A DNA stretch of 64,000 bases, taken from positions 64,001 through 128,000 of the forward strand of contig JBHLNF010000009.1 of assembly GCA_048937405.1 (NCBI GenBank), written 5' to 3'. The DNA is from Promethearchaeota archaeon. Lineage in GTDB: Archaea; Asgardarchaeota; Lokiarchaeia; Sigyniarchaeales; SOKP01. A program made the translations under genes and the position numbers. The notes beneath the pieces are model-generated. The model was given only the letters and a program-made list of their open reading frames with translations. It searched no databases and was not told where the DNA came from. Below are positions 1 to 9,785 of this stretch, piece by piece; position 1 is the stretch's first letter; every line of letters begins with the position of its first letter.

Positions 1-249
1 AAAAATGAGAATTTAACTGAATTAGAAAGTTTGAGAGAAGAACAGGAAAATCTAATGGAAAAAAACATTGAAAATTTTCGAAATTCATCTGATTCAGCAT
101 TGAAAACATTGACTAAAAATTTGGAGGATAAAAATATCTTTATAAAAGAGAAATTAAAAGAATTTAAAAATAAAATGAAAAAAACCTATAACGATAATAA
201 AAAAAACTTAATAGAATTAATTATAAAAGATATTGGTTTTGATTTTTAA
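1..249 (+). CDS. A/V-type ATPase peripheral stalk subunit H/G-like, 5'-truncated by the window edge
   Basis: Frame is open from base 1 (aaa aat gag aat tta...). Charged helical protein whose stop overlaps the start of subunit F (TAATG). Assignment mainly from operon position. Confidence 0.55.
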   Translation, partial: KNENLTELESLREEQENLMEKNIENFRNSSDSALKTLTKNLEDKNIFIKEKLKEFKNKMKKTYNDNKKNLIELIIKDIGFDF

Positions 250-569
250 TGCCAGATCAGAAAATTCATGTATTAGGTCAAGAAGAATTTGTTTTAACAT
301 TTGGTCTTTTAGGTATAGATGGTACTATTATTGAAAAAAGTGAAGAGTTTCTTAAGAAATTTGACACATTGATTAAAGATTCCTCAATTGGAATGATAAT
401 AATTTTTATGGATTTATCAGATGAAATTATAGACTTTATTTTAGACTTTAAAATAAGCAATAAAAGTCCATTTATATTTTTTATACCTAATATTTTCCGA
501 CTAGATTTTGAGAATCGAGATATATTTTTTAATAAAATTTTTGAATCTATTGAAAAAATTATAACTTAA
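249..569 (+). CDS. atpF: A/V-type ATPase subunit F
   Basis: 106 aa. KIHVLGQEEFVLTFGLLGI matches the subunit F N-terminus (KIxVIGDxDTVxGFxLAGI); IGMIII and P-x-IP motifs present. Confidence 0.85.
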   Translation: MPDQKIHVLGQEEFVLTFGLLGIDGTIIEKSEEFLKKFDTLIKDSSIGMIIIFMDLSDEIIDFILDFKISNKSPFIFFIPNIFRLDFENRDIFFNKIFESIEKIIT

Positions 570-581
570 GAGATGTAGATC

Positions 582-1310
582 ATATCAGAAATTAATTTAT
601 TAAAAGAACGATTTGGGAAATTAGGATTATATCTTATTGATAAAGCTAAAACTGAAATTAAAAAGCTTGATCAACAAACCTTATTTCAAATTGCAGAAGT
701 TAAAAAGAGGTATAGAGAACGAATAGCAGATAGTTCTTTAAAAATTAAAAATAGTTTTATTGATACATATAATAAGCAATTAAATAATTCAATATCTTCG
801 ACCCTGTTAAAAATTAAGCAGGAAACATTAAGTGTTAAAAATGATTTAATTTCAACTTTAATTAAAGATTTAAATTTACTTTTAGAAAAAAAAATTAATG
901 ATAATTATTCAAATTATATAAAATTCCTATTATCAACATTAGAAAAAATCAAAAATTTAATAGACAAGCCTCCACAAGTCGTTATAAATTTAAATTCTAA
1001 AGATTATGAATATTTTCTTGGGAAATTTGACAAAATTCAAAGTATTTTCAAAAATAGAGTTACATTAAATCCTACAAAAGATGAATTTATAGGAGGATTT
1101 AGAATTTTGCAGACTGAAATGAACATTTCTTATGATTTTTCCATTGTAAATTTAATAAATAAAAAAAAATCAAGTATCGAAATTAAATTCTCAAAAATCT
1201 TTTCAGATACATATTTAGAACTAAATGAAATAATCGAAAATTATGAAAAATTCATTCAAGATCAAAAATTAGCTATAAAAGAATATTTACAAGATTATGA
1301 CAATTTCTAA
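582..1310 (+). CDS. atpE: A/V-type ATPase subunit E (about 242 aa, probable ATA start)
   Basis: The frame of the 1107..1310 ORF is open back to 579 with no ATG/GTG/TTG. Translation gives a long N-terminal helix, then VVINLNSKD and FIGGF..., typical of subunit E. SD-like GAGATG at 570-575 lies 6 nt before ATA TCA GAA. Confidence 0.8.
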   Translation: MSEINLLKERFGKLGLYLIDKAKTEIKKLDQQTLFQIAEVKKRYRERIADSSLKIKNSFIDTYNKQLNNSISSTLLKIKQETLSVKNDLISTLIKDLNLLLEKKINDNYSNYIKFLLSTLEKIKNLIDKPPQVVINLNSKDYEYFLGKFDKIQSIFKNRVTLNPTKDEFIGGFRILQTEMNISYDFSIVNLINKKKSSIEIKFSKIFSDTYLELNEIIENYEKFIQDQKLAIKEYLQDYDNF

Positions 1311-3147
1311 TAAAAAAGCTTATGAGAAGTTAAATTTTGGGTATATAACCTCAATAAATGGATCCTTAATTGAAATAAAAGGATTTGAAAGTCAAGTTCG
1401 TACTCACGACTTAATAAGAGTATCTGAACAAAATATATTAGGTGAAGTGATTCAAATTTATTCAGATCACGCCACTGCTCAATGTTTCGAGAGTACTAAT
1501 AACTTAAAGTTAGGTGAGAAAGTAACCAATTTAAGAGAACCATTATCAATGGAGTTAGGTCCAGGATTATTAGGTAATGTTTTCGATGGTATTCAAAGAC
1601 CTTTAGATATAACCTTTGAAAATACAAATAAAGGTTTTTTAGAAAGAGGGAATGATTTACCAGCATTATCAAGAGAAAAAAAATGGCATTTCATTCCCAA
1701 AAAAAAATTAAATGACATTGTAAGTAGTGGTGATATTATTGGTACGGTACAGGAAACTCTAGTCATAGAACACAGAATATTGGTTCCAATAGGTATTAAA
1801 GGAAAATTGAGTTTTATAGCTAAAGAGGGAGATTATACGATTAAAGACAAAATATTTTGTGTGAAAGAGAAAAATGTTGAGAAATCTTTTAGTATGTTGC
1901 AAAAATGGCCAATTATCAAAAATAGACCTTATAAGAGGCGTGAATCTCCTATTGAACCATTAATTACAGGTATGCGGGTAATAGACCTATTATTTCCCAT
2001 AGCAAAAGGAGGTACTGTTGCTGTACCTGGAGGTTTTGGTACAGGTAAAACAGTAATTCAACAATCATTAGCTAAATGGTGTAATGCTGATGTTATTGTT
2101 TTTGTAGGATGTGGTGAAAGAGGAAATGAAATTGCAGATGTTTTAAAACAATTTATTGAAATAATTGATCCAAAAAGTGGAACTGCATTGTTGAATCGAA
2201 TAGTTTTAATAGCTAATACATCTAATATGCCAGTTTCAGCTCGAGAAGCTAGTATTTTTTCAGGAGTAACAATTGGAGAGTATTATCGAGATATGGGATA
2301 TGATGTAGCAGTATTAGCAGATAGTACCTCAAGGTGGGCAGAATCACTACGAGAGATCTCAGGATTATTAGAAGAAATGCCAGCTGAAGAGGGATATCCT
2401 GCGTATTTACCATCAAGAATTTCTAGTTTTTACGAGAGAGCTGGAGTTGTAAACCTTTTAGGTGAAGATCCCGCGAATAAAGAAAGATATGGATCTTTAA
2501 CAATAATCGGTTCTGTCTCCCCGCCTTCTGGAGATTTTAGTGAACCTGTTACGGCAACCACCAAACGTTTTGTACAGGCTTTTTGGGCATTAGATGCTAG
2601 TCTAGCATACTCTAAGCATTATCCTGCAATAAATTGGCTCAACTCTTATTCAAATTATCCCGATTATATAGTTGACTGGTGGTCTGATAGGGATATCTTT
2701 TGGCCTGAGATAAATCTCGATTGGTATGAAAGTAGGGATCAAGTGAATAACATTCTTTCTCAAGAAAATGAATTAAGAAATATAATGCAACTAATTGGGG
2801 AAGAAAATCTACCTGATGATCAACAATTAATTCTTTTTATTTCCAAATTAATTAGAAATAGTTTTTTAATTCAAAATGCCTTTGATGATATTGATAATTT
2901 CACTGATACTAAAAAACTACTTGGTCAGATTAAATTAATTCTTCTATTATATAAAGAAGGAATGGAACTATTAAATTCAGGATATTTAATTGAAGATATT
3001 AAGAACCTCGAAGTAATTGATGACATTTTACGAATAAGTTATTCGATTTCTAATGATAATTTTTCAGAAATAGAACAATTAAAGAAAAGGTTAAATAATG
3101 AAATAGAATCATTAAAATTATCATATGGGGTCTCTAAAGAAAAATGA
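1297..3147 (+). CDS. atpA: A/V-type ATPase catalytic subunit A (copy 1, canonical)
   Basis: Walker [57 protein letters not shown]. Confidence 0.97.
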
Positions 3148-4535
3148 GTATTATCTATGGAAAAATTGAACAAATTGTAGGACCGTTGTTATTCTTAAGT
3201 AATGAACATGATGCACAATATGGGGAGATTGTTAAAATATTAACTAATGGTGGGATAGAACGTACTGGTCAAGTTGTAAAAATAGATGAAGATACTATTG
3301 TTATTGAAGTATTTGAAGATACAAGTGGTTTATCCTCAGAGAATTCTAAAATTCTTTTTACAGAGGATTCTTTTAAAGTTAAAATCTCGAATGATATGTT
3401 TGGTAGAACATTCAATTCACTTGGAAAACCAATTGATATAAATACTAAAAAGGTTTTAGAATCTGAGTTGATAACAGAAGTTGAACGAGATATTAATGGA
3501 GCACCAGTTAACCCATTCGCAAGAGAATACCCAACCGAAGTAATCCAGACAGGTATATCTGTTATTGACGGGCTGTTTACTTTAATAAGAGGACAAAAAC
3601 TTCCTATATTTAGTGGACAAGGAATGCCACATAATGCACTAGCGGCTCAAATTGTTACACAATCTAGAGTTTTAACAGAAGAACCTTTTCTAATTATTTT
3701 TTGTGGTATAGGAATTATCCAGGATGAAGCAATTTATTTTTTAAATAGGTTTCAAGAAAGTGGAAATATCCAAAATATCATTTCATTTATAAATTTTGCA
3801 GATGATCCCATAATGGAGCGTTTAATAATTCCAAGAGTAGCATTAACTACTGCAGAATATTTCGCTTTTGATAAAGATATGCACGTTCTTGTTATTTTAA
3901 TAGATATGACTAATTATGCTGAAGCATTAAGAGAACTTAGCTCAGCAAAAGAAGAGATTCCTAGTAGAAAAGGTTATCCAGGATATCTATATACTGATTT
4001 TGCTTCAATTTATGAGCGAACTGGCAAAATAAAAGGTAAAAAAGGAACAATAACTCAAATACCTATTCTAACAATGCCAAATGATGATATATCTCATCCA
4101 ATTCCAGATACCTCAGGATATATTACTGAGGGGCAATTAGTCCTTAATAGAAATTTGCATAAAAGAGGTATATATCCACCCTTTGAAGTTTTAGCTTCTA
4201 TATCGCGACTTATGAAAGATGCAATTGGTGAAAATACAACAAGAGAGGATCACAAGGATATAAGTTCCCAATTATTAGCTTCGTATTCAAATACTCTTGA
4301 AGTTAGAGATCTTATATCAATTGTTGGTGAAGATGGATTGAACAGTAATCAAAGATCTACGTTAAAGTTTGGAGAAATCTTCGAACATGAATTTTTAAAC
4401 CAAAACGTAAATGAGAATCGAGATTTTACAACAACTTTTAAAATAGCTTGGAAATCTTTATCTGCTTTACCAAAAAATCAATTATATAGAATTCATCAAG
4501 AATTTATTAAAAAATATTATCAAGAGCAGGTGTAA
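3144..4535 (+). CDS. atpB: A/V-type ATPase subunit B
   Basis: [49 protein letters not shown], arginine finger SISRLM. ATGA overlap with atpA. Confidence 0.97.
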
Positions 4536-4542
4536 TACTACT

Positions 4543-5193
4543 ATTAGTTTTAGAGAATTCAAACCTACAAAAACAAACTTAATGAGTTTACAGAAAAGAT
4601 TAAATTTTGCTGTGAAAGGTAAGAGCTTTTTAGAATTTAAACAAGAACAATTGATATTTGAAATTAAAAAGTTATGGAGTGACTATAAAATACAGCGTAA
4701 AAACTACCTAAATCTATTCATAGAAGTCATGATTTGCTTGCAACAGACTTATATGGAAATGGGAAAGAACAATTTTAAAATAATTAGTAGTTTGAGCAAA
4801 ATCCAATTCACCCCAACTATCAATGTTAACTATGTAAAAAAGATTGGTAATGTAGTACCAGAGATAGAATATGAACTAATAAGAAAAGAAAGACTTCCCG
4901 CTTATTCTTTTGAATATACAAGTCATTATCTAGATGACTTAATAAAAAAATTAACAAATCTTTTCAATATAATGATTCATTTGGCAGAAATCGAAGATGT
5001 AATGTTAAAACATTCGCTAAGTTTTAAAAAAATAACTCGAAGAATCCATGGACTAAATAATATTATTATCCCCTCACTTAGTCAAGAAATTAAAAAAATA
5101 AAAGATATATTAGAAGAAGTTCAACGAGAGAATTTTGTAAGATTAAAAAGTATAAAAGATCTAATTTATGAAAAAAAGTTTATAAAAATGTGA
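4543..5193 (+). CDS. atpD: A/V-type ATPase subunit D (probable ATT start upstream of the tracked ATG at 4582)
   Basis: The in-frame upstream extension SFREFKPTKTNL carries the conserved N-terminal PT motif. ITRRIHGL..IIIP and RENFVRLK match the subunit D C-terminus. CAGGTG lies at 4527-4532. Confidence 0.88.
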   Translation: MSFREFKPTKTNLMSLQKRLNFAVKGKSFLEFKQEQLIFEIKKLWSDYKIQRKNYLNLFIEVMICLQQTYMEMGKNNFKIISSLSKIQFTPTINVNYVKKIGNVVPEIEYELIRKERLPAYSFEYTSHYLDDLIKKLTNLFNIMIHLAEIEDVMLKHSLSFKKITRRIHGLNNIIIPSLSQEIKKIKDILEEVQRENFVRLKSIKDLIYEKKFIKM

Positions 5194-7481
5194 ATGCGAT
5201 GGTAACCAAGACGGTAATGTGCTTATTTGACGTAGCTATACATAATGATTATAAAGATTTTCTATTACAAGAATTAGCTCAAATAAAAGTAGTTCATATT
5301 AGACCAAAAGAAAAAATAATTGAAAATGTCGAAAAAGGAGATCGTTTCTCTGAAAAAATAAAAACATTAAGATCTGAGATAGAAAGATTATTCAAAATGC
5401 TTAATATTACTGATAATGATATACAAAGGTTGAATGTTAAAAAAAAAGAAAGAATAGAGTTTGTTGTTAAAGATATCCTTGAATTAATAAACTATATTTT
5501 AGAAGAGATTAATTTCTATAATAATCGTGTAGCGGAATTAGGAAAATATGTAGCAAAAGTTAATATTGAACAAGATAAAATGAAAATTATTGAAGAAAGT
5601 TATAACTTTCTAAATAATATTGGGGTATCTAGAGATAATTTATCCCAATTAAAACAGTTATCTTTTAGAGTTTTTACCACTTTTTCAAAAAATTTGGTTT
5701 TCATAAAAAATCTTTTTGATTTTTCAAATTTTCCAAATTTTTTTGACACCCAAAAAATTTCAGAAGATCGAATAGTATTTTTCACAATTTATCCTAAAGA
5801 TAAAGAAGAAGATTTAAAAGAAAAACTTCGGGTTATTCAAGTAGAAGAAGTACCCATTTTAAAAAAATATCTACTTATTGATGGTATTAACTTTCCTAGA
5901 ATTAAAAGTGAAATTAATTTTATTACAAATACTTTAATTAAGTATGAAAAAGAATTGGAGCGGCTTAGAGATGATAATATAATATTATTCGCCGCTATGT
6001 ATGAAATTGTTCAAAATATCGAAGATTATGATTGGGCTGAGAATCAATTCAGAGATATATCATCAAATGCTTCAAGCCTTCAATTCTTTATTCCTGTGGG
6101 CCGAAAGGAGGAAGTTCGTAAAAGATTAATTGATGTTTTTAAAGATAAGATAAATATTCATTCTATGGAAATATCAAAAAAAACCATTATAAACGTTAAA
6201 GAAAAAGAACAGGAAGAAGATTTAAAAGAAAAATCATATTCAAAATATAAACTTAAGAATAAAGAGGTTATCTCGAGTAACGTAGAAGCAGATGAAGATT
6301 TAAGAGAAAAAACGCCACGACTTATGAAAAACAATTTTTTTGTAAGACCTTTCGAAACATTAACAAGAATGTATGGTACTCCTTCTTATTCTGAAATTGA
6401 TCCAACACCATTTTTAGCACTTATATTTCCTATTTTGTTTGGGTTAATGTTCGGTGACATTGGTCATGGGATAGTTTTAATTATAGCAGGTTTAATTGGT
6501 GCTGTCATTTTTAGAAATAAAAAAGGAACTGACTTTTTAAATTTTTGTTGGATAATCTTTTATTGTGGCCTGGGAGCTGTTTTATTTGGTTTTTTATATG
6601 GTGAATTTTTTGGAATGCATGACATAGAAATTGGAGGTCAAGTTTTTCTTCATCTAAATCCGGTTACAATTCCTATATTGAATATGACATTACATAATCC
6701 AATTTCGCGTGTAACAACGGTTTTAATATTTGCAATACTGATTGGTGTGATCCATATTAATTTAGGTTGGATAATACAGTTTTTGAATTATTGGAGACAA
6801 GCGAGAAAATATTTGGCAATTACAGATTCATTAGTTAAGATATTTTTATTAATTGGTGGTACAATTTTAATTTTAAATTATAAATTTGACATAAATGCAT
6901 GGGTATCACCACCATTTCCAATATTATTACCCTTGATTCCAGGCATATTACTCCTTATTTTAAAACCTATTGGCAAAATTCTAGGAGTATCGTATATGAA
7001 AGCTGAATCATATAAAGATCTTGTAAGTGAAGGTTCAATGGAAACATTTGAAACATTATTATCCGTAATAAGCAATGTTGCTTCTTATATACGATTATTA
7101 GCACTAGCACTAGCTCATATAGCTTTAATGATTGCCATCCAAGCAATGACAGATTTAATTGAAGGATCGGGATTTTGGGTTGAATTTGCAAAATCTACAG
7201 GTTTAATTTTCGGTAATATAGTGGTTATTCTTATAGAAGGATTATTAGTTTTTTTAAACGCGTTGAGGCTGAATTTTTATGAATTCTTTTTCAAATTTTA
7301 TAGTGGATCTGGAACAAAATTTTATCCCTTTTATTTAGGTGATAATTTTTCAATTATAAACTTTAAATTAAGTGATGAAAAGGATATTGTTTCTGAAGAA
7401 ATAGAAAGAGAAATTGAATCTAAGCAAATTCATGAGGACATTCTTGAAGCAACAAAACAAATTTCTAAAAAATATTTTTAA
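5190..7481 (+). CDS. atpI: A/V-type ATPase membrane subunit I (a)
   Basis: PFETLTRMYGTPSYSEIDPTPF, FGLMFGDIGHG, essential Arg in SYIRLLALALAH, LRLNFYEFF.KFY. Start may be ATG 5199. Confidence 0.95.
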   Translation: MNAMVTKTVMCLFDVAIHNDYKDFLLQELAQIKVVHIRPKEKIIENVEKGDRFSEKIKTLRSEIERLFKMLNITDNDIQRLNVKKKERIEFVVKDILELINYILEEINFYNNRVAELGKYVAKVNIEQDKMKIIEESYNFLNNIGVSRDNLSQLKQLSFRVFTTFSKNLVFIKNLFDFSNFPNFFDTQKISEDRIVFFTIYPKDKEEDLKEKLRVIQVEEVPILKKYLLIDGINFPRIKSEINFITNTLIKYEKELERLRDDNIILFAAMYEIVQNIEDYDWAENQFRDISSNASSLQFFIPVGRKEEVRKRLIDVFKDKINIHSMEISKKTIINVKEKEQEEDLKEKSYSKYKLKNKEVISSNVEADEDLREKTPRLMKNNFFVRPFETLTRMYGTPSYSEIDPTPFLALIFPILFGLMFGDIGHGIVLIIAGLIGAVIFRNKKGTDFLNFCWIIFYCGLGAVLFGFLYGEFFGMHDIEIGGQVFLHLNPVTIPILNMTLHNPISRVTTVLIFAILIGVIHINLGWIIQFLNYWRQARKYLAITDSLVKIFLLIGGTILILNYKFDINAWVSPPFPILLPLIPGILLLILKPIGKILGVSYMKAESYKDLVSEGSMETFETLLSVISNVASYIRLLALALAHIALMIAIQAMTDLIEGSGFWVEFAKSTGLIFGNIVVILIEGLLVFLNALRLNFYEFFFKFYSGSGTKFYPFYLGDNFSIINFKLSDEKDIVSEEIEREIESKQIHEDILEATKQISKKYF

Positions 7482-7507
7482 CTCACATTTTAATTGATTA
7501 TTGAATT

Positions 7508-7927
7508 ATGGAAAATGATAACAAAAAAGTCTCTCAGAAGGACGTTATTCGTAAAACTATTAGTATGATTTTTCTAATAATATTTCTATTAATTCTTTAT
7601 TATTTTTTAATCAATTTTAAAACAAATCCTATTATTATCATTCTAATTATCAGTTTTATACTCGTAACTTTTCTAGGACTTATATTTAAAAACCGGACAA
7701 AAAACCTTTATTCAAGAATGTTCCCTGATAAAGATAAAAGGAAAAATCAACCTTATCGGAAAAAAGAATTATATAAAATAGAAGGAGAACCTGAAATAAG
7801 AAAATTGTCAGATGTAAGCCTCAATTTTAAATATCGTAAACCTCTCATTAATAGATGTATGAAATGTGGAATGACACTTCCAAGTTATGTCAAAAAATGT
7901 CCTATTTGTGGTACACCAAATAAATAA
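7508..7927 (+). CDS. Two-TM membrane protein with C-terminal zinc ribbon
   Basis: Two hydrophobic segments, a basic linker, then CMKC-x10-CPIC. 26 bp after atpI and 40 bp before the second atpA. Confidence 0.75.
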   Translation: MENDNKKVSQKDVIRKTISMIFLIIFLLILYYFLINFKTNPIIIILIISFILVTFLGLIFKNRTKNLYSRMFPDKDKRKNQPYRKKELYKIEGEPEIRKLSDVSLNFKYRKPLINRCMKCGMTLPSYVKKCPICGTPNK

Positions 7928-7967
7928 AATAATTAAAAAAATAAAAAAAAAATTTGGATAGTAATTA

Positions 7968-9785
7968 ATGTCAGTTGAAGAACTTCATAAATATGGTGTA
8001 ATTACATCAATTAAAGGTTCAATAATTAAAATAAAAGGATTAGAAAATGAAATAAGACTTCATGACTTAGTCAAAATTTCTAACCATAATATTTTAAGTG
8101 AAGTTATTCAAATTTATCCTAATTACATTGTAGCCCAATCTTATGATGATACAAATAGTTTAAGGTTATATGAAAAAGTCATTAATCTTAAAAAACCATT
8201 ATCCATGGAGTTAGCTCCTGGATTGATGGCAAATGTCTTTGATGGAATTCAAAGGCCTTTAGAAACAATTTTTGAGCATTATAAAGAAGGAAAATTAGAA
8301 AAAGGAATCGATTTTTCACCATTATCAAGAAAAAAAAAATGGCATTTTGTGCCGCTAAGAAAAAAAGGTGATAATGTAAATAGTGGAGACATTATTGGAA
8401 CAGTACAAGAAACTGAAGTAATTACCCATAAAATTATGATTCCACCTACAGTTTTTGGGAAAATAACTTTAATTGCAGAAGAGGGAGATTATAATATAAT
8501 AGATACAATTTATTGTTTAACAGAAAATGGACAAGAAACCTCGTTCTCAATGTTACAAAAATGGCCAATTACTAAAAGGAGACCCTTTGAAAGGAAAATT
8601 AAACCAAATGAACCATTATTGACAGGAACACGAATAATTGATTTACTATTTCCAATAGCAAAAGGAGGGACATCTGCAGTTCCAGGAGGATTTGGTACAG
8701 GGAAAACAGTTATTTTACAAACAATTGCAAAGTATTGTAAAGCCGATATAATTATTTTTATAGGCTGTGGGGAGCCAGGTAATGAAATTGCTAATGTTTT
8801 AAAACAATTTAAAGAGATTTATGATGCTAAAAATGGGAGACCATTATTAGATCGCACAATTATTATTGCAAATACTTCAAATATGCCTGTATCTGCTCGT
8901 GATGCCAGTCTTTTTTCAGGAGTCACTATAGCGGAGTACTATAGAGATATGGGATATGATGTTGCCGTTCTTGCAGATAGTACATCAAGATGGGCAGAAT
9001 CCTTAAGAGAAATATGTGGATTATTGGAAGAAATGCCAGCCGAAGAAGGATACCCTGCATATTTACCAACAAGACTCTCAAGTTTTTATGAAAGAGCGGG
9101 TGTTTTTAGAACCAATGGACGAAATCATTTAGGAAAACAAACTATTGGGTCTTTGACAATTATAGGATCAATATCGCCTCCTGCAGGAGATTTTAATGAG
9201 CCAGTTACTACAGTTACTAAAAGGGTTGTACAATCATTATTAGCTCTAGATAATAAATTAGCATACTTAAAACAATATCCTGCTATAAATTGGATGAAAT
9301 CTTATTCAAATTATCCTGAGCAAATTTCAGAATGGTGGAGAAATAACGATATTTATTGGTCAGAAATTGATCTAGATTGGATAGGGTGTCAAAAACAAGT
9401 AGATGAAATACTATCAAAAGATCATGAGTTAAAATTTATAACACAGTTAATTGGAAAGAAAAATTTACCTGATGATCAAAAACTTGATCTTTTTATGGCA
9501 AAATTAATTCAAAATAGTTTTCTAAGTCAAAATGCATTTGTAGAGATCGACAATTTTACAGAACATAAGAAATTATTGGGATTAATTAAAATAATTCTAT
9601 TATTTTTCAAAGAGGGAAAAATTCTGTTAAAAAAAGGATTTAGATTTGATGAGAATAAGGAAGACGAGGTCATGAATAGTATTATGAGAATTACCCATTC
9701 CATTCCAAATGCAGATTTTGACCAAATAGAACAATTTAAAAATAAGATGCTTAGCGATATTTTAAAATTGGTTTTTGTAAGATAA
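7968..9785 (+). CDS. atpA: Second A/V-type ATPase subunit A paralogue with altered catalytic motif (GEPGNE)
   Basis: Full-length, colinear paralogue of 1297..3147. Walker A GGFGTGKT and ADSTSRWAE intact; codon 8775-8777 is CCA (Pro) where copy 1 has AGA (Arg). Confidence 0.93.
   Translation: MSVEELHKYGVITSIKGSIIKIKGLENEIRLHDLVKISNHNILSEVIQIYPNYIVAQSYDDTNSLRLYEKVINLKKPLSMELAPGLMANVFDGIQRPLETIFEHYKEGKLEKGIDFSPLSRKKKWHFVPLRKKGDNVNSGDIIGTVQETEVITHKIMIPPTVFGKITLIAEEGDYNIIDTIYCLTENGQETSFSMLQKWPITKRRPFERKIKPNEPLLTGTRIIDLLFPIAKGGTSAVPGGFGTGKTVILQTIAKYCKADIIIFIGCGEPGNEIANVLKQFKEIYDAKNGRPLLDRTIIIANTSNMPVSARDASLFSGVTIAEYYRDMGYDVAVLADSTSRWAESLREICGLLEEMPAEEGYPAYLPTRLSSFYERAGVFRTNGRNHLGKQTIGSLTIIGSISPPAGDFNEPVTTVTKRVVQSLLALDNKLAYLKQYPAINWMKSYSNYPEQISEWWRNNDIYWSEIDLDWIGCQKQVDEILSKDHELKFITQLIGKKNLPDDQKLDLFMAKLIQNSFLSQNAFVEIDNFTEHKKLLGLIKIILLFFKEGKILLKKGFRFDENKEDEVMNSIMRITHSIPNADFDQIEQFKNKMLSDILKLVFVR

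Follow-up and report, generated by a model that had tools for sequence, protein, structure and literature searches.

The head of rotary ATP synthases is thought to be fixed, with three identical catalytic subunits, and the regulation of these enzymes is ascribed to small inhibitor subunits, MgADP inhibition and the size of the c-ring. The duplication that gave rise to the B subunit of the A/V-type and the alpha subunit of the F-type enzymes predates LUCA, the last universal common ancestor. Here we describe a second gene for the catalytic subunit A in the A/V-ATPase operon of a Promethearchaeota archaeon, found in a stretch of 64,000 nucleotides that was analyzed as a whole (assembly GCA_048937405.1, contig JBHLNF010000009.1, positions 64,001 to 128,000; referred to as the window). 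The gene, denoted A2, lies downstream of the canonical subunit A gene, denoted A1, and encodes a paralogue in which the arginine of the GER motif is replaced by proline (GEPGNE instead of GERGNE).

The function of this arginine has been characterized in F1 and V1. E. coli beta-Arg182 binds inorganic phosphate (Pi) and the gamma-phosphate, and MgADP is bound without involvement of the residue (PMC3268026). In the beta-R182Q and R182K mutants, ATP synthesis and Pi binding are abolished and the ATPase activity drops from 42 to 0.02 and 0.25 umol/min/mg, respectively; beta-R182Q has also lost the transition state and does not respond to the MgATP analogue MgADP-BeFx (PMC3268026). In E. hirae V1, A-Arg262 holds the gamma-phosphate together with Lys238 and the Arg-finger of subunit B (PMC5095293). 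F1 whose catalytic residues are mutated to alanine continues to rotate, 10^3-10^4 times more slowly (PMC5380711), and hybrid F1 carrying one slow beta subunit stalls once per turn, with mixed heads forming statistically (PMC2755722).

A2 shares Pfam domains, length and operon with the solved A/V-type A subunits (P. horikoshii 1VDZ/3M4Y, T. thermophilus 3A5C/3W3A, E. hirae 3VR2), which it matches with phmmer E-values of 1e-148 to 1e-162, and it likewise has the P-loop, the catalytic Glu, Walker B and the adenine-pocket Tyr/Phe. The GER arginine of these proteins (R264 in P. horikoshii, R262 in E. hirae) is, in contrast, Pro in every A2. A2 further differs from canonical A in being a second copy beside it, in occurring in one Asgard family only, and in its relaxed pocket periphery and C-terminal domain. 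As in beta-R182Q/K, the homologous arginine is gone from an otherwise intact catalytic site; those are, however, laboratory mutants with Gln or Lys at all three sites, whereas A2 occurs in nature, carries Pro and is found alongside a wild-type paralogue. The hybrid F1 alpha3-beta2-beta(E190D)-gamma, with one slow catalytic subunit among normal ones, displays the behaviour that we propose for A1/A2 heads, but it is an engineered F-type enzyme altered at another residue, and mixed A1/A2 heads are a proposal only. Like A2, B and alpha are duplicates of a catalytic subunit; they lost catalysis and remained in the hexamer. They have lost the catalytic Glu (B also the P-loop) and alternate with the catalytic subunits, whereas A2 keeps both elements and would compete for the A positions. 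Accordingly, the B subunit of the window operon has, unlike A2, neither a catalytic Glu nor an intact P-loop. In contrast to the pre-LUCA origin of B and alpha, the A2 duplication is young and restricted to one family. We found no published description of A2 in the literature on ATP synthase evolution in Asgard archaea, on second or pseudo-catalytic A subunits, or under motif strings such as GEPGNE, and to the extent of that search A2 is an undescribed variant of the known subunit A.

Sequence and conservation of the arginine-less subunit A

As an earlier note on the window had stated, subunit A is encoded twice in the operon, by full-length genes that are colinear and lie on the + strand. The two genes and the sites that distinguish or characterize A2 are as follows (window coordinates; residue numbers are those of A2):

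1297..3147, + strand: A1, canonical catalytic subunit A with GERGNE, 616 amino acids (aa)
7968..9785, + strand: A2, arginine-less subunit A paralogue with GEPGNE, 605 aa
8685..8708, + strand: Walker A of A2, GGFGTGKT, residues 240-247; Lys246 invariant (119/119 A2)
8772..8777, + strand: GAG CCA, catalytic Glu269 and Pro270; Pro at the site of the GER Arg, Glu269 in 119/119
8793..8795, + strand: Asn276, six residues past the lost Arg; Asp invariant in A1, Asn in 85% of A2
8910..8912, + strand: Leu315 (SAR[ED]AS-L); Ile invariant in A1, Leu in 99% of A2
9267..9269, + strand: Leu434 (LAY-L-K); Ser in A1, Leu in 97% of A2
9459..9461, + strand: Lys498 (IG-K-KNLPDD); Glu invariant in A1, Lys in 82% of A2

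A1 and A2 are 64% identical over 597 aa with two gaps. Both contain PF16886, PF00006 and PF22919, which in A2 are matched with E-values of 7.7e-31 (non-homologous insert), 5.9e-68 (nucleotide-binding domain) and 9.9e-16 (C-terminal domain); the N-terminal barrel of A2 falls under the Pfam threshold, yet can be aligned to that of A1. A2 can be aligned over its entire length with solved A subunits, and alignment to the P. horikoshii subunit places Pro270, Glu269 and Lys246 of A2 at R264, E263 and K240. Codon 270 of A2 (8775-8777) reads CCA and yields GCGEPGNE, as compared to GCGERGNE in A1, and the Walker A motif, Glu269, Walker B (LADSTSRW) and QNAF are all intact, in agreement with the earlier description. 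That description had also listed the changes to LLALD and KQYP; both are present, not as a signature of A2 but only in the sublineage of the window (G000/G005, partly G015/G017). This sublineage also has SARDAS for SAREAS and GDFNEP for GDFSEP in A2, at positions that are invariant in A1.

Conservation was compared between 71 A1 and 119 A2 sequences within a 200-sequence alignment. Proline occupies the GER Arg site in 119 of the 119 A2-type sequences, which come from independent assemblies. Lys246, Glu269, Glu273, Arg311, Asp337, Arg341 and Pro438 are likewise invariant in A2, including the Walker B aspartate (Asp337) and the second phosphate-binding arginine (Arg341 of DSTSRW) at 100% each, and Tyr437 of the adenine pocket is kept in 98%. 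Sites that are conserved in both paralogues but differ between them (type-II sites, listed from a first alignment of 162 sequences) number only six: R275P, D281N, I320L, S439L, E503K and R215K in A1 numbering. The leucine that replaces Ser439 of A1 (Leu434 of A2) sits three residues before Tyr437, and Lys498 reverses the charge in a loop of the C-terminal domain, which may be the equivalent of the DELSEED loop of F1 beta. No new basic residue that could compensate near the A2 site was found among the type-II sites. Arg419, invariant in A2, was considered for such a role and rejected, as it is also present in the A1 of the window and in P. horikoshii. Subunit B cannot provide specific compensation for A2 because it also serves A1.

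The proline is encoded by four codons among 75 distinct A2 genes (CCT 37, CCA 26, CCG 7, CCC 5), and none of its one-step neighbours (Arg, Ser, Thr, Ala, Leu, His, Gln) occurs at the site in the 119 A2 sequences; selection must therefore act for proline itself. The orthologues thus confirm the GEPGNE conservation that the earlier note had suggested checking, and they exclude a sequencing error at base 8776. Its view that the intact frame reflects selection rather than decay is borne out as well: in comparison with the close relative L060, the ratio of non-synonymous to synonymous substitution rates (dN/dS) is 0.114 for A2, 0.110 for A1 and 0.088 for B, far from the value near 1 that would have spoken for decay. 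In six further pairs dN/dS ranges from 0.095 to 0.144 for A2 (with one value of 0.28 at a dS of 0.07) and from 0.090 to 0.120 for A1, and the frame is intact in every A2 copy examined. Per-site entropies of A1 and A2 are correlated (r=0.78), and 158 of the 186 near-invariant columns of A2 show the A1 residue. The extra variability of A2 is local and confined to residues 240-259, 280-299, 420-459, 480-519 and 560-605; constraint on the N-terminal barrel and on the non-homologous insert matches that in A1. In this pattern, the parts of A2 that build the ring and meet the stalks have been kept, and loosening has affected the moving C-terminal domain and the surroundings of the nucleotide pocket.

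Judged by its sequence, A2 is a member of the subunit A homology family from which one defining feature of the catalytic class, the GER arginine, is absent. With an essential catalytic residue lost and the remainder of the protein under purifying selection, it would classify as a pseudoenzyme, the loss of activity being predicted from the homologous F1 mutants.

Distribution, gene order and origin of A2

A scan for C-G-E-P-G-x-E across the 153 genomes of the order gave exactly one match per genome in 83 genomes; with the reversed pattern as a control, the same 153 genomes gave 0 matches. Two matches from outside the family that carries A2 were discarded as spurious, one (G027) because of a stop codon inside it and the other (G041) because its contig differs from the sole contig with an A homologue in that genome. 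A2 is present in 81 of the 134 genomes of a single Promethearchaeota family (Loki-type Asgard archaea), in 7 of its 13 genera, and in 0 of the 19 genomes from the other families of the order. When 185,579 prokaryote species, each represented by one genome, were scanned for G-E-P-G-N-E followed by N-M-P, 72 loci were obtained. All 65 loci from Promethearchaeota are genuine A2 genes; the other 7, from bacteria, show no homology to ATPases and were rejected. This global count is a lower bound, as the pattern misses GEPGSE-like variants; with it, A2 was not found outside the one family in the 185,579 species genomes. The earlier picture of a paralogue belonging to Lokiarchaeia at large therefore has to be narrowed to this family. 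The closest database matches of A2 are from metagenome-assembled genomes labelled Promethearchaeota or Lokiarchaeota, with a 96% identical copy in GCA_019058245.1, and A2 proteins bear the plain database name 'V-type ATP synthase subunit A'. Within the genus of the window, nearly every genome contains two A genes about 6.7 kb apart, of which the distal copy is always GEPGNE. As a separate observation, with the queries used, one 98% complete genome of this genus (G018) yielded neither a match to subunit A at E<=1e-30 nor the GEPGxE pattern.

The gene order E-A1-B-D-I-Zn-A2, in which Zn denotes a gene for a small membrane zinc-ribbon protein, is followed by the convergent tRNA-splicing endonuclease gene endA and is kept in genera g1, g12, g15, g19, g21 and g22. 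The I-Zn-A2 arrangement, which the earlier note had proposed to trace in relatives, is thus conserved across six genera; A2 is on the same strand as I-Zn and is often separated from Zn by just a few bases. Genomes of the family that are devoid of the Pro pattern have a single canonical A and still contain I-Zn, followed either directly by endA (G112, G144) or by other genes. In G012, an opposite-strand FBPase-family gene stands in the place of A2 between Zn and endA (L057 14340-15330). The presence of the Zn-ribbon gene after I in A2-less members of the family (G112, G144, G059, G149, G048, G077, G056, G012) rules out the Zn-ribbon protein as a necessary, A2-specific partner. The gene for this protein predates A2 and does not depend on it.

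G112 lacks A2, whereas its sister in the A1 tree, G135, retains it; losses of A2 must therefore be recent and repeated. A2 without A1 was seen in 0 genomes with an assembled B. Three genomes in which only A2 was detected (G009, G010, G047) were considered as cases of A2 being the sole catalytic subunit and rejected, as B is missing there too and the contigs end. Two relocations were observed. In genus g17 (L078/G060, L079/G061), A2 is found alone among unrelated genes, with a normal A1-B pair on another contig; this A2 is divergent (58-59% identity, long branch), and its neighbours, an alpha/beta hydrolase, a histidine phosphatase and an MFS transporter, give no functional clue. In the single-contig genome G006 (L037/L038), the operon is split, with E-A1-B-D at 2.19 Mb and I-Zn-A2-endA 860 kb away at 3.06 Mb; F, H, C and K were not found in the stretch inspected next to E.

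In a 50-sequence, genus-level tree, the Pro-type genes form one clade (SH-aLRT support 99) beside the A1 genes of the same genomes, and the single-copy A genes of other families fall outside. The deep part of a 90-sequence, family-wide tree is a polytomy; forcing its 40 Pro-type genes together costs 1.65 log-likelihood units (approximately unbiased (AU) test, p=0.48), and on this test a single origin of A2 is not rejected. The A2 subclades mirror those of A1, with patristic distances correlating at r=0.86 (31 genomes, 465 pairs), and A2 has evolved 1.35 times faster than A1 over the same genome pairs. In g16, g23 and G048, the basal lineages of the family, Zn is accompanied by a single A. The most economical history compatible with these trees would be one tandem duplication at the 3' end of the operon after the basal lineages had split off, followed by vertical descent and losses.

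Genus g12 (L074/L075; G045, G046) departs from this pattern, with A1 and A2 being 81% identical at a dS of 0.45-0.47, compared with 59-70% identity elsewhere and a dS of 1.3-1.7 in the two pairs measured. The low dS points to gene conversion between A1 and A2 in this genus. Despite the homogenization, the R/P, I/L (SAREAS-I/L) and S/L (LAY-S/L-KHYP) differences persist, and Asp281 has not been turned into Asn. The three differences that survived conversion are therefore the likely core of the functional difference between the paralogues.

A proposed place of A2 in the ATPase head

The reading that we favour, with about even confidence, is that A2 assembles into the head as a catalytically attenuated subunit and modulates the enzyme. 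Head assembly, loss of activity and a physiological role are what we infer from the established sequence facts, the distribution, the purifying selection and the retained and relaxed sites. The earlier proposal of a non-catalytic subunit that acts in the head as a brake or sensor, or as an assembly factor, is likewise drawn from homology. A2 would be made from the same transcript as A1 and take up A positions beside the single B, mixed A1/A2 heads being the probable outcome. A subunits have no mutual contact in A3B3; because of this, and because of the common transcript, A1 and A2 should combine into heads statistically, in the way that wild-type and mutant beta mix in vitro. The A2 site is expected to bind Mg-nucleotide but to be impaired in Pi binding and transition-state stabilization. 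By transfer from the homologous Arg182 of F1 and Arg262 of V1, it is predicted to be silent in ATP synthesis and slower by orders of magnitude in hydrolysis. The A2-containing enzyme would carry a built-in throttle against ATP hydrolysis and, when driven by the ion gradient, the motor would make fewer ATP per turn, that is, it would run at a higher ion/ATP ratio.

Several points weigh against this reading. Its functional steps are all transferred from F1 and V1 homologues. The catalytic Glu, the P-loop and Walker B of A2 have been fully kept over a long divergence, unlike in B and alpha, and the site could still turn over. A simple loss of function does not account for the strict need for Pro as opposed to any non-basic residue. 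A2 is dispensable, having been lost in several near-complete genomes (G012, G112, G144), and a role outside the complex would fit its placement off the operon in g17 equally well.

An alternative is that A2 is a fully working catalytic isoform, used in condition-specific heads, whose site tolerates or even exploits the proline, for example by binding Pi or nucleotide with a changed affinity or by working as a pump in hydrolysis only. The invariance of the other catalytic residues in the 119 A2 sequences, including the Glu and Arg341, purifying selection equal to that on A1, and the fixation of Pro itself rather than a mere absence of Arg would all fit such an isoform, as would the slow rotation retained by the F1 alanine mutants (PMC5380711). 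We nevertheless consider it unlikely: the homologous arginine is needed in F1 for Pi binding, the transition state and ATP synthesis (PMC3268026) and contacts the gamma-phosphate in V1 (PMC5095293), A2 has gained no compensating basic residue and shares its B with A1, its C-terminal domain and the surroundings of its pocket are under relaxed constraint, and it is never found as the only A. If A2 were fully active after all, the accepted essential role of the GER arginine in rotary catalysis would need rethinking.

A function outside the rotary enzyme, alone or with B only, as a soluble nucleotide sensor, as a chaperone in the assembly of the head or in some unrelated process, would account for the dispensability of A2 in several genomes, for its position next to hydrolase and phosphatase genes in g17 and for the 860 kb between the I-Zn-A2 block and E-A1-B-D in G006. 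It is, however, difficult to reconcile with the N-terminal barrel and the insert, which have no known role outside the complex and are as conserved in A2 as in A1, with the A1 residue being kept in 158 of 186 near-invariant columns, and with an operon position maintained across six genera; we judge such a function distinctly improbable. That A2 is a decaying duplicate, or its proline a sequencing or assembly error, might be suggested by CCA being one base away from CGA and by the 1.35-fold faster evolution of A2. This explanation is refuted by the comparative data, with Pro in 119 of 119 sequences from independent assemblies, four Pro codons, intact frames in every copy examined and a dN/dS of about 0.11, and we assign it a negligible probability.

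Returning to an attenuated A2 within the head, we put forward a more specific, speculative version of which we are doubtful, a gear and ratchet. With one or two A1 replaced by A2, only two or one of the three sites would remain productive in each turn, raising the ion/ATP ratio and allowing ATP to be made at very low ion-motive force, and the near-dead site would stall the ATP-wasting reverse reaction. A2 would then also represent a recent, still legible repetition of the ancient transition from a homohexamer of catalytic subunits to catalytic and non-catalytic ones. Under the favoured reading in general, a change in head composition would be a new regulatory principle for rotary ATPases, in hosts that are energy-starved relatives of the eukaryotic ancestor, and A2 offers a young natural model for the evolution of a non-catalytic from a catalytic subunit.

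The operon in the window and further subunit A genes

According to open reading frame (ORF) listing and Pfam matches, a single A/V-ATPase operon occupies positions 1-9785 of the window on the + strand in the order H-F-E-A1-B-D-I-Zn ribbon-A2. Its parts other than A1 and A2 are the following:

1..249, + strand: 3' part of an H-like small coiled-coil stalk gene; start upstream of the window, frame open from the window edge
249..569, + strand: subunit F (PF01990, E 1.1e-11)
579..1310, + strand: subunit E-like stalk gene, a 243-codon stop-to-stop frame
3144..4535, + strand: subunit B, the sole B gene of the genome (Pfam and genome search)
4582..5193, + strand: subunit D, central stalk (PF01813, E 2.2e-33)
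5190..7481, + strand: subunit I, membrane stator a-subunit (PF01496, E 1e-34)
7508..7927, + strand: small membrane Zn-ribbon protein, 139 aa, between I and A2

The earlier assignment of an A/V-ATPase operon with a second subunit A holds, but the operon extends beyond what the window contains, with the genes for K (proteolipid) and C just upstream of it on the same contig. The convergent endA gene marks the end of the ATPase locus. The whole 4.47-Mb assembly contains two A genes, A1 and A2, and one B gene. The H-like gene has no Pfam match above threshold, and its position between C and F is kept in relatives. The E-like gene has no canonical start near its 5' end, the first ATG, GTG or TTG occurring only at 1107; a non-canonical start is likely, because full-length homologous ORFs are present between F and A1 in every relative. 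In the Zn-ribbon protein, a Lys-rich linker joins a hydrophobic N-terminal half to a C-terminal zinc ribbon (CxxC..CxxC). Its gene follows I as a constant part of the operon throughout the family, whether or not A2 is present. The protein matches none of the known subunit families of rotary ATPases and PF13240 only weakly; its gene has a dN/dS of 0.19.

Two observations concern other subunit A genes of the order. Some genomes contain a second, divergent type of A-B pair (L065/G123, L052/G022, L051/G031), with about 47% identity to A1/A2 and GERGNE; in G123, which is 100% complete, this type is the only A found with the query used. In G077 (L072/L073), G056 (L066/L067) and G034:C65, the single A gene forms one frame of 1137-1157 codons, in which the match to A is split near residue 250; no A2 was seen in G077 and G056. 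The split match suggests the presence of an intein in the catalytic subunit of these three.

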